From Acidobacteriota bacterium (GTDB lineage: Bacteria; Acidobacteriota; UBA890; WLXD01), in NCBI GenBank assembly GCA_963666055.2, contig CAXWPH010000015.1:2016001-2080000 (forward strand): a stretch of DNA of 64,000 nt, given 5' to 3'. The translations under genes and the position numbers were made by a program. The notes under the pieces were generated by a model. The model saw only the letters and a program-made list of their open reading frames with translations, ran no database searches and was not told where the DNA came from. Shown here piece by piece: positions 1,581 to 11,447 of this stretch; within the stretch, counting starts at the first letter, position 1; every line of letters starts with the position of its first letter.

Positions 1581-4816
<3,236 letters not shown>

Positions 4817-4829
4817 CCGGACCGGAGCG

Positions 4830-5828
4830 ATGGCTGCGCGCGCCGCCCTCCACGCTCTCTCTGTCGCCGCCGGGGTGACCGTGGTCGTCGGCACGTCGGT
4901 TCTGCAAGATCCGGCCCCGGGCGACGTGGCTGGCGAGACGATTCCGGGCACGCAGGTCGCGTTCGAGATGGCGTTCGTTCCCGGCGGTGTGTTCGAGCTC
5001 GGCAGCCCTGTCGACGAGACTGGCCGCGACGATGACGAGGGTCCGGTCCGCCGGGTTCGCATCGAGCCTTTCTGGATGGGTGTACACGAGATCACCCATG
5101 ATGAGTTCGCGGTCTTCCGTTATCGGCGGCTGGACGATCATGCGAGTGCGGCGGCCGATCTACCGTTCGATGCCGATGCCGTGAGCCGACCGAGCCCGCC
5201 ATACGAGGACCCCGCCCACGGTATGAGCAAGGATGGGCACCCAGCCGTAGGCATGACGCGCCGGGCCGCTTTGCAGTACGCCCGCTGGCTGTCAACCAAG
5301 ACCGGAAGGCTGTACCGATTGCCCACTGAGGCCGAGTGGGAGTATGCCTGTCAGGCTGGCGAAGATCGCGCGTACGGATTCGACGGCGCTTCCGGCGAGC
5401 TTGGTGCACACGCCTGGCTGGCCAACAACAGCCGCGCGACGTACCAGGCGGTCGGTCTGAAGGCACCGAACGTCTGGCGCCTGCGTGATATGCACGGCAA
5501 CGTCGCCGAGTGGGTGGCCGATCGCTACGATGCGGCGTTCTACGCCAGCCTTCCGGATGGCGAGCCGGCGGCGGGTCCGATCTCCGGGCTGCCGGGTCGC
5601 GGCCAAGGTGTGGTTCGAGGTGGTTCTTACGTCGATGGGCCGGCCGACGCGCGCTGTGCGGCGCGTTTCCCCGAAACGCCATACTGGAAACGTCGCGACC
5701 GCCAGATTCCGAAGAGTCGCTGGTGGAACACTGATTCGGAGCACGTCGGATTTCGGATCGTCCGTCCGGCGCGCGACGTCGGGATCGACGAGATTCAGGC
5801 GTACTGGAACGCCGTATTGGGAGCGTAG
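4830..5828 (+). CDS. FGE/SUMF1-fold (formylglycine-generating enzyme family) exported protein
   Basis: RLPTEAEWEYAC, DMHGNVAEWV, RGGSY, GFRIVR motifs; hydrophobic N-terminus. Confidence 0.88.
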   Translation: MAARAALHALSVAAGVTVVVGTSVLQDPAPGDVAGETIPGTQVAFEMAFVPGGVFELGSPVDETGRDDDEGPVRRVRIEPFWMGVHEITHDEFAVFRYRRLDDHASAAADLPFDADAVSRPSPPYEDPAHGMSKDGHPAVGMTRRAALQYARWLSTKTGRLYRLPTEAEWEYACQAGEDRAYGFDGASGELGAHAWLANNSRATYQAVGLKAPNVWRLRDMHGNVAEWVADRYDAAFYASLPDGEPAAGPISGLPGRGQGVVRGGSYVDGPADARCAARFPETPYWKRRDRQIPKSRWWNTDSEHVGFRIVRPARDVGIDEIQAYWNAVLGA

Positions 5829-5840
5829 TACGGTGCTCGC

Positions 5841-5858
5841 CTAGCAGGCCATGGTGAA
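5841..5858 (+). repeat. Solo end of the CTAG-bounded repeat family
   Basis: CTAGCAGGCCATGGTGAA vs CTAGCAGGCCGTGGTGAA of the 38395-38757 element (17/18). Confidence 0.6.
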
Positions 5859-5888
5859 GCATGGCCCGCTGGCCATTGAGGAGGAACG

Positions 5889-7158
5889 ATGAACAGACGC
5901 GATTTCGTAATGACGAGCACAGCCGGCGACCGCCGACGCGATTCGGATCGGGCTGATTGGTTGTGGCGGGCGCGGCACAGGCGCGACGGTACAGGCGCTG
6001 AGCACCACGCAAGACGTCAAGCTCGTGGCGATGGCAGATGCGTTCGACGACAAGGTGCAGGCGAGCTACGAGACGATCACGTCGATTGAACGCGACGATT
6101 GGCTCGGTGGTAGCGCTGATCTGCGGGCTCGTATCGAAGTGCCTCCGGAGCGGCGTTTCTCGGGATTCGATGCCTACAAGCAGGTGATTCCGCTGGTCGA
6201 TGTGGTCATCTTGGCCACGCCTCCCGGTTTCCGTCCAACCCATTTCGAGGCGGCGGTCGAGGCCGGCAAGCACGTGTTCATGGAGAAGCCGGTGGCCACC
6301 GACGCACCCGGTGTGAGGCGCGTGGTTGAGGCCGGAAAGCGTGCCCGAGCGAACCAGATCAACGTCGTGGTCGGGCTGCAGCGACATTACCAGCGGATGT
6401 ATCGCGACTGGGTCGAGCGCATTCACGCTGGCATGATCGGCGACGTGATCCTCGGCCGTGTCTACTGGAACGGCGCCGGTGTGTGGGAAAGGCCGCGCCA
6501 GCCGCAGCAGACCGAGATGGAGTACCAGATGCGCAACTGGTACTACTTCAACTGGCTGTGTGGCGACCACATCGTCGAGCAGCACATCCACAACATCGAT
6601 GTCGGCAATTGGGTGATGGATGGGCACCCGGTACGAGCGCAGGGGCAGGGTGGCCGCCTGGTTCGAAAAGGCAAGGACCACGGCGAGATCTTCGATCATC
6701 ACTTCGTCGAGTACGAGTACGAAAACGGCAGCCGAGTGCTCAGCCAGTGTCGCCATATGCCTGACTGCATGGACCGGGTGTCCGAGGCTTTTCACGGCAC
6801 CAACGGCACCGCGCCCCGCCCCGGGGTGATACTCTCGAAGACGGGCAAGACGCTGTTCGAGTACGACGACAGCGCCGACCCGAACCCTTACCAGGTGGAG
6901 CACGACGAGTTGTTCGCGGCGGTGGCCGCAGGCGAGTTCACCTTCGCCGACACCGAGCGGGGCGTGGTGGCGACGATGACCGCGATCCTGGGTCGGATGG
7001 CGACGTACTCCGGACAGGTCGTTGAATGGGATCAGGCGGTGGCGTCGGACCTTGACCTAATGCCGGCTCGGCTCGCCTGGGATGCGCCTTCGCGGGTGCT
7101 CCCCAACGCACATGGTCGCTACCCGATCCCCACCCCCGGCGTCACGCGAGCCTTCTGA
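5889..7158 (+). pseudogene. Tat-exported Gfo/Idh/MocA oxidoreductase with a frameshift/deletion in the signal peptide (real lesion or assembly error)
   Basis: GAGGAGG RBS then MNRRDFV (Tat motif) in one frame; RAQPATADAIRIGLIGCGGRGTGA...ATPPGFRP...FMEKP...EQHIHNID in another frame; the h-region is missing. Confidence 0.8.
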
Positions 7159-7168
7159 GGCGAGTTCG

Positions 7169-8068
7169 GTGAGGCGCCGCGACTTCATGGGCATGTTGGC
7201 GGGCGTCGGCGCCGCTGCGGCCTGGGGAAGCTCCGCGGCGGGCGCCCAAGCGCAGTTCGGGCTCGACTACGCTCCGCACTTCGGGATGTTCCGCCACAAC
7301 GGCGGCGAAGACCCGATCGACCAGCTGCGATTCATGGCGGCGCAGGGTTTCGGCTCGGTCGAGGACAATGGGATGCGCCAGCGACCGGCTGCAGAGCAAG
7401 AACGCATCGCCAGGGAGATGTCGCGTCTCGAGTTGCGCATGGGGGTGTTCGTTGCTCACACCATCTACTGGCGCGAACCTAATCTCGCCAGCGGCGACGA
7501 GAACAAGCGGGCCGAGTTTCTCTCCGAGATGCGCTCCGCGGTCGAGGTGGCCAAGCGCGTTCATGCCACTTGGATGACGGTGGTTCCCGGTCACGTGGAC
7601 CTCGCTGTTCACCCGGATTACCAGACAGCCAACGTCGTCGAGGCCCTGAAACGGGCTGCGGCAATACTCGAGCCGCACAGCCTGACCATGGTGCTCGAGC
7701 CGTTGAACCCACGCGACCACCCCGGCCTCTTCCTCAAGGGGATTCCGCAGGCCTTCCAGCTCTGCAAGGCGGTCGACAGCCCGGCGTGCAAGATCCTCGA
7801 CGACCTCTACCACCAGCAGATCAGCGAGGGGAACCTCATTCCCAACATCGACGCGGCGTGGGACGAGATCGCCTACTTTCAGATCGGCGATAATCCAGGG
7901 CGCAACGAGCCCACCACCGGCGAGATCAACTACCGTAACGTCTTCCGCCACATTCACGACAAGGGCTTCGACGGAATTCTGGGAATGGAGCACGGCAATT
8001 CACAGCCCGGAGGTTCCGGGGAGCTGGCGGTTATCGATGCCTACCGCCGCGTCGATGTCCGACGCTAG
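7169..8068 (+). CDS. Tat-exported hydroxypyruvate isomerase (Hyi)/xylose-isomerase-like TIM barrel
   Basis: RRRDFMG twin-arginine leader; LEPLN, DLYHQQISEGN, QIGDNPGRNEPTTGEINY, GMEH. Confidence 0.88.
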   Translation: MRRRDFMGMLAGVGAAAAWGSSAAGAQAQFGLDYAPHFGMFRHNGGEDPIDQLRFMAAQGFGSVEDNGMRQRPAAEQERIAREMSRLELRMGVFVAHTIYWREPNLASGDENKRAEFLSEMRSAVEVAKRVHATWMTVVPGHVDLAVHPDYQTANVVEALKRAAAILEPHSLTMVLEPLNPRDHPGLFLKGIPQAFQLCKAVDSPACKILDDLYHQQISEGNLIPNIDAAWDEIAYFQIGDNPGRNEPTTGEINYRNVFRHIHDKGFDGILGMEHGNSQPGGSGELAVIDAYRRVDVRR

Positions 8069-8107
8069 CCAGCCGTGGTGGAAGTGTGGCGCGCCTGGCG
8101 GCAGGGT
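8065..8107 (+). repeat. Solo end of the CTAG-bounded repeat family overlapping a TAG stop codon
   Basis: CTAGCCAGCCGTGGTGGAAGTGTGGCGCGCCTGGCGGCAGGGT aligns with CTAGCAGGCCGTGGCGAAAGTGTGGTGGGTCTGGCGACAGGGT at 38395. Confidence 0.8.
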
Positions 8108-8137
8108 CTTGACAATGTCGACTACCCGGAGAGGATC

Positions 8138-9718
8138 ATGCGACGCTCGACGGTGATCTGCTGCTTGGCGCTCTCTGCCATCATGGCGATGGCCACGCCC
8201 ATCAACTCGCAGCAGCGCAGCGTCGCCCTGCGAGGCGGTGGGACCGGCGTGTTTCTCGATGGTTTCGCGGATCACACCATGATCCTGCGTCCGGCGGGCG
8301 ACGGCGGCTGGCGACTCGAATGTATCCGGGGCGACCGTCACGACGCCGCGGCTCTCCTCCGATCCGGTGATCGCGTCGCACCGCCGGCGAGCAACCTCGA
8401 CGGGCGCGACGATAATGGGCGCCTGGCGCGGGCCGCGGTCACCGCGGGCATGCGGTTTGATCCAGACGCCCCGACGGGCGTCGACGATGCGGGCCGCGTG
8501 CTGCTGTACATGCCAAAGCCGATCGAGCCGGGGTCGAGCGGGTCGCACTTTGACCGCACCGCCAGCCCTGACCTGCTCATGGAGCCAATTATTTCGCCTG
8601 ACTTGTTGTTCGACGAGGTCGACCTGACGGATGAGGCACTGCGCGATATGGGATGGCGTCCGGGGCAGTTCCGCTCGGAGCTGCGCTTCACGGACGACGC
8701 CGACAGCGGCTTCAACCACCCCGTCTTGGGGCCGGCGCGCCGCGCCGCCCAGCGGTTCATGCTCCGCGTCTGGGGACGGCTGCTTGGCAGCGCCTCGAAG
8801 GTCACGGTGGACGCGGGGTTCGCGGACCTGTCGTGCTCGGCCACGGAGGGAGCAACGCTGGCGCAAGCGGGTCCACTGTTCGTGTTCGCGGACTTCGCTG
8901 GCGGCTTGCCGGGCGTGTGGTATCCGGGACCGACGGCGGAGTCGATCGTCCGCGCCGACCTGAGTGAGTCCGACGAAGCCGACCTCGCGATCACCTTCAA
9001 CGCCGCGGTCGATGACGGATGCATGGGACCGGGCACCGGCTGGTACTACGGGCTCGACAACAACGTTCCGCCGGCGCAGGTGGCGTTCCTCCCGGTGGCC
9101 CTGCACGAGATGGCACATGGATTGGGGTTCGTCGGGCTGACGAACCTGGATACGGGAGCGTTCTTCCGGAATCTTCCTGACATCCTGGCGACGATGACGT
9201 TCGACAACCGGCGCAACAGAACCTGGGACGAGCTCTCTCGCGGGGGGCGCCGCAAGTCCGCGGTGCGCGACGGCGAGGTCGCCTTCACCGGCGCTAAGAG
9301 CCGGCGAGACGCGCAGCCGCTCCTGCGCGGGGCCCACGTGATTCAGATCACCGCCCCCGACAACCTGGCGGGAACCCACCTGGTCGGCCGGGCGCTCTTC
9401 GGCCCGGCGCTCGACGAAACCGGTCTGGCCGCCGACCTGGCGCTCGCCGATGATGGCACCACCACGCCGACGCTCGCCTGTGGGCGGCTCGCCAATGGCG
9501 GCGAGATTGCCGGCAAGATCGCGGTGATCGACCGTGGCGAGTGCCGCTTCGATGCTAAGGTGCAAGCGGCGCAAGACGCTGGTGCCGTAGGCGTGGTCGT
9601 GGTCAACAACGTCGGCGGTGCCGCGGTGGATATGGCCGGCGAAGACGCGTCGATCGTGATTCCCGCCGTTATGGTGGACATGCAGCTTGGCAAGAAGATC
9701 ACGCGACGCCTGAGGTAA
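8138..9718 (+). CDS. Secreted PA-domain zinc metallopeptidase (HExxH), apparently circularly permuted
   Basis: Signal peptide after GGAGAGG; GSSGSHFD and LLMEP; LHEMAHGLGF; C-terminal PA domain (GKIAVIDRGECRFDAKVQAAQDAGAVGVVVVNN). Confidence 0.85.
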   Translation: MRRSTVICCLALSAIMAMATPINSQQRSVALRGGGTGVFLDGFADHTMILRPAGDGGWRLECIRGDRHDAAALLRSGDRVAPPASNLDGRDDNGRLARAAVTAGMRFDPDAPTGVDDAGRVLLYMPKPIEPGSSGSHFDRTASPDLLMEPIISPDLLFDEVDLTDEALRDMGWRPGQFRSELRFTDDADSGFNHPVLGPARRAAQRFMLRVWGRLLGSASKVTVDAGFADLSCSATEGATLAQAGPLFVFADFAGGLPGVWYPGPTAESIVRADLSESDEADLAITFNAAVDDGCMGPGTGWYYGLDNNVPPAQVAFLPVALHEMAHGLGFVGLTNLDTGAFFRNLPDILATMTFDNRRNRTWDELSRGGRRKSAVRDGEVAFTGAKSRRDAQPLLRGAHVIQITAPDNLAGTHLVGRALFGPALDETGLAADLALADDGTTTPTLACGRLANGGEIAGKIAVIDRGECRFDAKVQAAQDAGAVGVVVVNNVGGAAVDMAGEDASIVIPAVMVDMQLGKKITRRLR

Positions 9719-9762
9719 TAGATGGTCCGATCGGTGCTTGCTACGGTCGTGCAGGTGCTCAC

Positions 9763-10893
9763 GTGAACCAAGACCGGCCGCCGCTCGTCGAGGACGTCTC
9801 CCACGACGGTGATTGGCTCACAGTCCGGTGGCGCGGCGGGCAACAGGCTCACTTCCCGGCAATCTGGCTGCGCGACAACATCCCCAGCGGTCGCCATACG
9901 CCGGAAGGGCAACGACTATTCGACATCGCCCAGCTGCCGGCTCGCATCACCCTGAGCGCCGCAACGCTTACTGCTGCCGGTAGCGTGGCCGTTACCTTCG
10001 ACCCAGAGGGAATTGACGACACCTTCGAAGCCGCCTGGTTGCAGCGCCATGCGCTCGACTCCGATGCCCGAGTAGCGCGACGCGCGCACCCGATCCGTTG
10101 GTCCGGGGAGCGACAGGAGCAGATGGAGTTCGTCGACTACGCACGCGTCAGCAGCGGAGCTGCCGAGCTCACCGCCTGGCTCCGCACCGTGCGCGACTAT
10201 GGCTTTGGTCTGCTGCGCAACGTCCCGACCGTCCCCGACACCGTGCTCGAGGTCGTTGGGCTCTTCGGCTTCGTGCGCGAGACGAGCTACGGTCGGCTGT
10301 TCGACGTGATCACCAAGCCCGATGCCGCGAACCTTGCCTATACCTCGATGACGGTCGGGGCGCATACCGACAACCCGTACCGCGATCCGGTGCCTGGCCT
10401 GCAGCTCCTGCACTGCCTGGTGTCCGAGGTCGAGGGCGGCGAGTCGGTGCTGGTTGACGGGTTCCAGGCCGCCGAACGCCTGCGATGCGACGCGCCGCAC
10501 CAGTTCGAGCTGCTGATCGAGCATCCGGTGGGCTTTCGCTACACCGAGCCGGGGTCCGTCGACCTGCGCAGCGAAGCCCCGCTAATCCAGACGAACCCGT
10601 CGGGAGAGGTGGTGGCGGTGCGCTACAACAGTCGTTCAGCGGCCCCGCTCGACATGCCGTCGGAGGTGCTTCCTGACTTCTACGACGCCTATCGCCACTT
10701 CGGCCGGCTGCTCGAGGACCCGGCCGCAGGGGTGTCGTTCAAGCTCGGCCCGGGAGACCTCATGATGTTCGACAACCATCGGGTGCTTCACGCCCGCAAG
10801 GGCTTCGCGGGCAACAAGCGGCACCTGCAGGGGTGCTACGCCGACAAGGACGGCTTGTACAGTACGTTGCGAATCCTCGAGGGTCGCACGTGA
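9763..10893 (+). CDS. Gamma-butyrobetaine hydroxylase-like Fe(II)/2-oxoglutarate dioxygenase, TmpA-like
   Basis: N-terminal WLRDN domain; NLAYT, HTDNPYRDP (HxD), FDNHRVLHAR, RHLQGCYAD; coupled to an HD protein. Confidence 0.85.
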   Translation: MNQDRPPLVEDVSHDGDWLTVRWRGGQQAHFPAIWLRDNIPSGRHTPEGQRLFDIAQLPARITLSAATLTAAGSVAVTFDPEGIDDTFEAAWLQRHALDSDARVARRAHPIRWSGERQEQMEFVDYARVSSGAAELTAWLRTVRDYGFGLLRNVPTVPDTVLEVVGLFGFVRETSYGRLFDVITKPDAANLAYTSMTVGAHTDNPYRDPVPGLQLLHCLVSEVEGGESVLVDGFQAAERLRCDAPHQFELLIEHPVGFRYTEPGSVDLRSEAPLIQTNPSGEVVAVRYNSRSAAPLDMPSEVLPDFYDAYRHFGRLLEDPAAGVSFKLGPGDLMMFDNHRVLHARKGFAGNKRHLQGCYADKDGLYSTLRILEGRT

Positions 10894-11447
10894 GCTCGAT
10901 TGTTGATGAGATCGAAGAGCTGTACGCTCGCCGCGGGCACGAGAGCTACGGCGAAGGCGTCACCATGCTCGAGCACTCGCTGTTGACCGCTCAGGCCGCC
11001 GAGCAGGCCGGTGCGCCAGACGCCTTGGTGGCAGCATGTCTGCTGCACGACATCGGTCATTTCCTCGAGGAAGCCGACGACGCCTATGGTGTTCACGACC
11101 ACGGCGACGCATCGGGTGACTATCTGGCACGCTTCTTCCCTGCCAGCGTCAGCGAGCCGGCTCGGCTTCACGTCGCGGCCAAGCGTTACTTGTGTGCAGC
11201 CGATACCGAATATGTCAACGCGCTTTCGGATGCCTCGCGATACACGCTCGAGAAACAGGGTGGGCCGATGTCACCTGTGGAGCGTCGCGAGTTCGAGGCC
11301 AATCCGTACCACCGCGACGGGGTGCGCTTGCGCAAATGGGAAGACTCGCGGGGCAAGCACACCGGCAAGCAGCCGCCCGACTGGTCGCACTTCCGCTCGC
11401 TGCTGGAGCACCTCGCAGCGTCGCCGGCACAGGCCACTAGCGCCTAG
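10890..11447 (+). CDS. HD-domain diiron oxygenase, PhnZ/TmpB-like
   Basis: YGEGVTMLEH, LLHDIGH, LHVAAKRYLC, LSDASRYTLEKQGGPM; GTG overlaps the upstream stop (GTGA). Confidence 0.85.
   Translation: MSSIVDEIEELYARRGHESYGEGVTMLEHSLLTAQAAEQAGAPDALVAACLLHDIGHFLEEADDAYGVHDHGDASGDYLARFFPASVSEPARLHVAAKRYLCAADTEYVNALSDASRYTLEKQGGPMSPVERREFEANPYHRDGVRLRKWEDSRGKHTGKQPPDWSHFRSLLEHLAASPAQATSA

Follow-up and report, generated by a model that had tools for sequence, protein, structure and literature searches.

The gene at 8138-9718 of the window (the whole 64,000-nucleotide stretch of DNA analysed) almost certainly encodes a naturally circularly permuted protease, as judged from sequence: the last 73 residues of the normal-order enzyme, including the likely third zinc ligand, come first in the enzyme part of the window protein. 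This protein was assigned to an unnamed family of bacterial proteins, predicted to be secreted zinc endopeptidases that combine a leishmanolysin-like (metzincin) core with a PA-domain insert, and for this explanation as a whole we estimate a probability of about 0.8. The rearrangement is not unique to the window gene and is common to a large group of homologs.

The open reading frame was stop-free and translated to 526 aa on the forward strand (Table 1), in the order signal peptide, small module, segment A (SH..LLMEP..DMGW), segment B (HExxH), and PA domain. Motifs were located at aa 33 (GGGTGVF), aa 58 (WRLEC), aa 101 (VTAGMRF), aa 132 (GSSGSHFD, nt 8531), aa 146 (LLMEP), aa 162 (DLTDEALRDMGW), aa 189 (DSGFN), and aa 323 (HEMAHGLGF, nt 9104); every motif quoted in an earlier note on this DNA was found at its place and in the order given there. 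The signal-peptide region of the window model formed a helix at aa 3-18. PA was the sole Pfam domain recognised in the protein (PF02225 on aa 444-521, E 3.7e-17, 62.7 bits against a cut-off of 23.9). A profile search of the genome (5.7 Mb, 15 contigs) returned one family copy and no normal-order paralog.

Table 1. Features of the permuted peptidase gene, in window coordinates unless given as residues
Feature	Position	Strand	Basis or remark
Ribosome-binding-like site GGAGAGG	8128-8134	+	Sequence; 3 bases 5' of ATG
Whole gene, 526 aa	8138-9718	+	ORF; sole family copy found in genome
Predicted Sec signal peptide, aa 1 to ~24 (MRR, hydrophobic core)	8138-8209	+	Sequence; cleavage site by eye
Fused post-PEP-CTERM-1-like module, N-terminally truncated, aa 25-75	8210-8362	+	Homology, model
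Cys62 of fused module	8321-8323	+	Sequence
Linker, aa 76-100, candidate processing site	8363-8437	+	pLDDT 42-62
Former last PA strand, now enzyme N-terminus, aa 101-108, VNATL-type	8438-8461	+	Models, alignment
Former C-terminal catalytic subdomain, aa 109-173, including final helix and GW	8462-8656	+	Alignment
His137, likely third zinc ligand	8546-8548	+	Invariant in 77/77 permuted rows
Met148, likely Met-turn	8579-8581	+	Invariant in 77/77 permuted rows
Join of old C- and N-termini, RPGQ, aa 174-177	8657-8668	+	Alignment, model
Former N-terminal catalytic subdomain, aa 178-397	8669-9328	+	Alignment; fold match to leishmanolysin 105-313
HEMAH, aa 323-327	9104-9118	+	Sequence
Cys233 and Cys295, likely disulfide	Within aa 178-397	+	Sequence
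PA domain without last strand, aa 398-526, ending at last helix	9329-9715	+	Pfam, model
Cys448 and Cys469, likely disulfide	Within PA domain	+	Sequence

In order to compare domain order, segment A (aa 98-174) and segment B with the PA domain (aa 178-526) were searched separately against the best 120 of 550 homologs. The earlier note had proposed a circular permutation and had predicted that such searches would return the C- and N-terminal parts, respectively, of the same homologs. This was the outcome: within a 121-protein set, segment A matched the region after B in 40 of 40 full normal-order proteins (E 1e-14 to 1e-22), and the two segments are thus homologous to opposite ends of the same relatives, as in natural permutants. 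Segment A preceded B in 79 of the 120 homologs, which share the order of the window protein; 40 had the order B-PA-A, which is the normal order that the note had given (HExxH, PA insert, then SH..LMEP), and one was a fragment (P0041). The homologs are therefore not all colinear with the window protein. Given that the samples were ranked by likeness to a permuted query, order counts are not frequencies in nature: the best 80 of 540 loci in species genomes (11 of 64 collection parts) comprised 5 permuted and 75 normal loci, 30 loci in a 301-genome sample of Acidobacteriota comprised 8 permuted and 22 normal loci, and the best 150 cluster representatives, retrieved with a profile spanning the join, comprised 34 permuted proteins, 87 normal proteins with PA, 18 normal proteins without PA, and 11 tandem multi-domain proteins. 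Of the permuted loci in the species genomes, four out of five were from Acidobacteriota (three of them Thermoanaerobaculia), and normal-order loci were from Pseudomonadota, Eisenbacteria, Krumholzibacteriota, Verrucomicrobiota, Chloroflexota, Fibrobacterota, and Acidobacteriota. The eight permuted loci of the Acidobacteriota sample were the window gene, six of the same family, and one divergent locus (L097).

The cut and join sites were located from alignments and structural models. In the normal-order chain, the last PA helix is followed by a loop, the VNATL strand, and then G.D..G, LY.P, GSS.SH, LMEP, DLT, and D.GW. The loop between helix and strand was 1-3 residues long in 79 of 114 normal-order rows, and in the normal-order model (P0119, pLDDT 87.5) the helix spanned residues 370-378 and the strand 384-389. 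Permuted proteins have the VNATL strand straight after the signal peptide or module, and their chain stops, or an accessory domain begins, directly after the PA helix. The helix and strand positions together with this row anatomy place the break in a PA-domain loop, one strand short of the end of the domain. The chain was therefore cut in the loop that connects the final PA helix to the final PA strand, outside the active site; there, the zinc ligands now occur in a different order along the chain. The proposal that the chain was reopened at the PA insert thus stands, whereas its placement through the active site and at the very end of the insert does not: in the alignment and in both models the cut precedes the last PA strand, which became the new N-terminus. 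In the window model (overall pLDDT 87) the moved strand occupied residues 102-108 (pLDDT 95) and the join block residues 171-180 (pLDDT 91), with lower values (76-86) in the loop around His137-Met148. The suggested junction near DMGW-RPGQ was recovered, with a linker of ~4 residues after GW leading into the old first strand in permuted rows. The distance from GW to GFxD was 17 in 66 of 74 scored permuted rows, and Gly was present at +3 from GW in 97 of 103 permuted rows versus 16 of 168 normal-order rows. The short linker at the old ends and the position of the new ends at a surface loop are as found in natural permutants.

The ancestral order was taken to be B-PA-A, given that PA-less relatives carry B then A uninterrupted (L123, L124; 18 of 150 single-domain proteins), that leishmanolysin has this order as well, and that in other PA domains the last strand follows the helix. 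The direction of change was thus read from colinearity with the metzincins and from the PA domain being intact, with no root behind it; PA-less relatives were considered as an outgroup and rejected, as they did not fall on one side of a branch. The permuted order could most simply have arisen if the gene was duplicated in tandem and in frame and then lost the first B-PA and the last A, a route on which the signal peptide would stay at the start and an accessory domain, where present, at the C-terminus. Tandem gene copies are found in the family (G176:C6, G216:C155), and no duplicated intermediate with a short join was detected among the 150 cluster representatives. Tandem multi-domain proteins had spacers of ~100 to 1250 residues and no PA, and the giant ones (P0124-P0131, P0142, P0152) were ruled out as intermediates by the missing PA and long spacers. 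These giants are 3,500-5,260 aa long and hold 3-5 tandem PA-less peptidase copies with spacers of ~270-1250 residues; in some, B segments are split by an insert of ~130-260 residues.

Trees were built after leaving out rows P0021, P0024, P0041, P0053, P0122, and L076. In close samples the permuted rows formed one branch, with 82/82 rows in the concatenated and B-only trees, 79/82 in the PA-only tree, and 80/82 in the A-only tree; its SH-aLRT support was 99, or 73 when L097 was added. A FastTree run gave two changes of order. A single origin of the permutation is favoured, and it is argued for by these narrower samples, by the common cut and join sites with their shared Gly, and by an AU test in which a single permuted clade was not rejected (p 0.292). 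Against this stands an appreciable, if lesser, chance that the permutation arose repeatedly at this one loop, or that certain lineages reverted, in which case the permuted proteins would not form a single clade. When sampling was widened, the unconstrained trees gave 3-4 changes of order (four in a 50-row tree). In a 334-row tree, 111 of 112 permuted rows grouped with one normal-order row (P0232) among them, a group of 98 rows that includes the window protein was well supported (99), and permuted P0218 lay outside; in the 50-row tree P0218 paired with normal-order P0186 (SH-aLRT 96), and the starred branches forced at least two changes. P0218 is accordingly a candidate second permutation and P0232 a candidate reversal.

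Two further observations concern the permuted relatives. Several close ones are frameshifted (L087/L122 of G039, P0024, P0053, P0122), by sequencing error or as pseudogenes. One locus (L111, 2251-3251 in G069:C9) holds a 1,001-base stretch, cut at both ends, that is identical to an internal part of a second permuted gene (L112) in this genome; the genome also holds two full permuted paralogs, and the stretch is followed by a reading frame that looks recombinase-like by its motif.

The N-terminal module of the window protein had been linked in the earlier note to small proteins encoded upstream of such peptidases, and this link was borne out: of 80 loci, 76 had a small homologous gene directly 5' of the peptidase gene and 2 had it fused, and the two loci without a partner started within 250 bases of a contig end. 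The module profile was seeded with 11 fused modules, including that of the window protein (P0001), and iterated on the loci; it gave 0 matches on reversed ORFs. Of 12 stand-alone partners tested, 11 scored over the 28-bit cut-off of NF047450 (post-PEP-CTERM-1), and all 11 NF047450 matches in 151 genomes were upstream of or fused to the peptidase, one being cut by a contig end. The fused modules of P0070 (33.6 bits) and G039 also passed this cut-off, and those of close relatives scored 16-19 bits. The window copy gave no NF047450 match at the cut-off; its aa 26-66 matched P0070 and P0061 (E 6e-4 and 2e-4 among 121 proteins), which ties it to post-PEP-CTERM-1 through intermediates. By sequence homology, the module reads as a truncated post-PEP-CTERM-1 domain, modelled as a four-strand meander plus helix (pLDDT 57-72), with the C-terminal meander kept and the DPxTGxLRxPT half missing. 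A search for short stand-alone relatives with aa 24-72 gave one match, a frameshifted fragment, this query being too weak.

Module fusions occupied the propeptide position in separate branches: two permuted branches had them, as did some normal-order proteins (L005; 7 of 150 representatives) and some PA-less ones (L124; 2 of 150). Two PA-less relatives of normal order are L123 (1339-3238) and L124 (1297-3198); the latter has a fused signal-module-linker-enzyme arrangement, the layout of a prepro-enzyme. In the divergent locus L097 no module match was obtained, and the ORF upstream has a similar Gly/Cys pattern at its end. In the divergent permuted proteins P0145, P0147, P0157, P0158, and P0205, the signal peptide is separated from segment A by 50-130 additional residues, which look like eroded or different fused modules and gave no score. 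At L034 a second post-PEP-CTERM-1-like gene (4373-4867) lies 3' of the peptidase, perhaps heading another tandem unit.

Of 88 module rows, 70 carried Cys in the Cys62 column, 11 carried His, and 1 carried Phe, while 6 were gapped there, and several stand-alone partners had neither Cys nor His at this position. In 88 of 90 permuted rows the enzyme part contained four Cys and no more, likely as two disulfides; with these paired, Cys62 would stay free. A free Cys62 in a Cys/His column suggests a cysteine-switch-like propeptide or inhibitor that acts in trans and is sometimes fused, and on balance we lean slightly toward the post-PEP-CTERM-1 module being the propeptide or inhibitor of this family. 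It is possible, with less confidence, that the module is instead a chaperone for folding or secretion, or else a partner in surface anchoring or assembly, and completes an enzyme sheet without capping the zinc. The near-absolute gene link would suit such a partner, as would the Gly-rich beta-meander of the conserved core and the replacement or loss of the Cys in about one-fifth of rows; yet His accounts for 11 of 12 non-gap substitutions, which fits a metal ligand, and the fusions place the module where propeptides usually sit.

In order to assess fold, models were compared with solved chains. Against 48,161 of these, the best non-PA match of the normal-order model was leishmanolysin 1LML (Z 15.3, rmsd 3.7, 206 aligned, 18% identity), with model residues 22-461 aligned to 106-377 of the chain, in line with the leishmanolysin-like core that had been suggested from sequence; matches to other metzincins were at Z 8.7-9.5 (MMPs), 7.4 (serralysin), and ~6-7 (ADAMs). 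In chain order the window model matched 1LML only over residues 174-397 to 105-313 (Z 7.0, 148 aligned), which stops short of the third zinc histidine, and its segment B gave metzincin-fold matches at Z 7.0-7.2. The fold match of its PA domain was at Z 14.8 and rmsd 1.8, and the PA match to VSR1 ended at 164 with the window model versus 181 with the normal-order model. Both the leishmanolysin and the VSR1 matches of the window model are truncated as a permutation predicts.

The HExxH motif and catalytic fold of metzincins are thus present, the fold being seen through the normal-order model and segment B of the window model. The likely third ligand follows HExxH in the chain of the normal-order sisters but not in that of the window protein, and to our knowledge this ligand order departs from that of all known metzincins. 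HExxHG was found in 81 of 82 permuted rows and L[LM]MEP in all 82, and the spacing from His to Met was 11 in 82 of 82 permuted rows as well as in all 110 normal rows scored. Zinc would be bound by H323, H327, and H137, and an active zinc endopeptidase is the probable product. That the permuted protein is no longer a protease, having become a binding protein or acquired a changed zinc site, is improbable: the one permuted row without HExxHG would agree with it, but 77 of 77 permuted proteins, spanning 39-90% identity, keep H137, M148, H323, and E324, H327 is conserved in more than 90% of permuted rows, and the genome holds no normal-order copy to do the job instead.

Sequence comparisons placed the protein in no named peptidase family. 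Pfam M8 (PF01457) gave no match for the window protein or for 54 segment-B rows, and 1LML was reached by sequence search only at E 0.068 and 0.56. Sequence searches of solved structures returned only PA domains, or zincins at E >0.02, and Foldseek with the normal-order model returned PA-domain matches only, among the matches listed. In the ESM Atlas the hits were unnamed clusters with leads below 0.9 (M10 in 18% and M8 in 13% of cluster members). Without M8 membership by sequence, the proteins were classed as an unnamed family with an M8-like fold.

We propose that the permuted protein would fold to the same shape as the normal-order enzyme, with the moved strand slotting back into the PA sheet. 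His323, His327, and His137 would hold the zinc, with Glu324 as general base and Met148 in the Met-turn, and the PA domain may serve as a lid or substrate-binding domain. The module would be the propeptide of the family, as a rule secreted as a protein of its own but fused in the window protein. Its Cys, which is His in certain relatives, would cap the zinc and keep the enzyme latent until the linker is cut.

An assembly artefact can be dismissed even though frameshifts in several close relatives (P0024, P0053, L087) indicate that such assemblies are not error-free, since the same order and conserved join recur in 79 homologs, which already refute it, and single contigs from two studies span the gene unchanged. 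The latter contigs, from runs X1 and X2, covered 7900-9900 with 0 differences and no joints (either run is possibly the source of the window), and so gave no sign of the misassembly that had been flagged for checking; in runs X4 and X5 the region was in pieces, of which one from X4 (7924-9117) crosses the join.

The peptidase gene is preceded on the same strand by genes for a formylglycine-generating-enzyme-like (FGE-sulfatase-like) protein, a Gfo/Idh/MocA oxidoreductase, and a hydroxypyruvate-isomerase-like protein (4797-8068, +), the last with a twin-arginine-like start (RRRDF). Downstream (9763-11447, +) are a TmpA-like dioxygenase, over its NCBIfam cut-off, and a TmpB/PhnZ-like HD oxygenase, likely a pair for 2-trimethylaminoethylphosphonate breakdown. 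A functional link to these sugar-isomerase and phosphonate genes was rejected, as they recur only within the same genus among the loci compared.

Natural circular permutations are known in many protein families. A search of open-access full text found no description of this family, its permutation, or its partner, and no natural circular permutation of a metzincin. The results allow the family to be viewed, tentatively and with the odds against it, as a split zymogen in which a cysteine-switch propeptide is the separate secreted post-PEP-CTERM-1 product, fused back several times, and the catalytic domain was permuted at one PA loop, possibly repeatedly. If so, this would be the first natural permuted metzincin with living normal-order sisters, and a propeptide as its own gene would be an unusual form of protease control. 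Both orders survive at ~40% identity with the same partner gene, so that the effects of reordering the zinc ligands and of untethering the PA lid on one side can be asked directly for folding, latency, and specificity. A fold is now given to a large family known in databases only by its PA domain, and orphan post-PEP-CTERM-1 proteins gain a partner and a testable role.

Among known systems, M36 peptidases are a different zincin class, and their likeness to the window protein lies in the PA domain alone, where NCBIfam M36 models matched far under their cut-offs (885-1700 bits). NF038122 (metallo_LGF) shows a weak likeness around HExxHGLGF (27.4 bits versus a cut-off of 80). Stand-alone partners pass the cut-off of NF047450, for which no function was found in the open-access literature, whereas the window copy, being the C-terminal meander only, falls below it. 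Small partners that control metzincins include the cysteine-switch propeptides of MMPs and ADAMs and co-encoded serralysin inhibitors. Like these, the module is a small N-terminal or co-operonic partner, here with a candidate unpaired Cys; unlike them, it is in most cases encoded separately, complete with a signal peptide, and fusions are the less usual arrangement.

The normal-order sisters (e.g. P0119, a 'PA domain-containing protein' of Marinicella meishanensis, and loci of Massilia, Telluria, Luteibacter, and Eisenbacteria) are named in databases by the PA domain alone. They resemble the window protein at 36-42% identity over B-PA and ~50% over segment A and share its motifs, four conserved Cys, and upstream partner gene; they differ in having the order B-PA-A, an intact PA domain, and accessory domains after the catalytic subdomain and not after the PA helix. 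In leishmanolysin (GP63, M8, 1LML), Met345 is the Met-turn. Residues at its site are His264, Glu265, Leu344, Met345, Ala346, and Pro347 (PMC9368959), and an insert of 62 residues separates Gly271 from His334, the third ligand (PMC9321319). Both proteins have HExxH with a distant third His, a His-Met spacing of 11 (His334-Met345 in leishmanolysin), and L-M-x-P at the Met (LMEP here, Leu344-Met345-Ala346-Pro347 there), whereas the insert before the third His is ~230 residues here, PA included, against 62 in leishmanolysin. The window protein further differs in being bacterial and having no GPI anchor, in leaving the C-terminal domain of leishmanolysin unmatched (the alignment ends at residue 377), and in carrying its third His and Met before HExxH.
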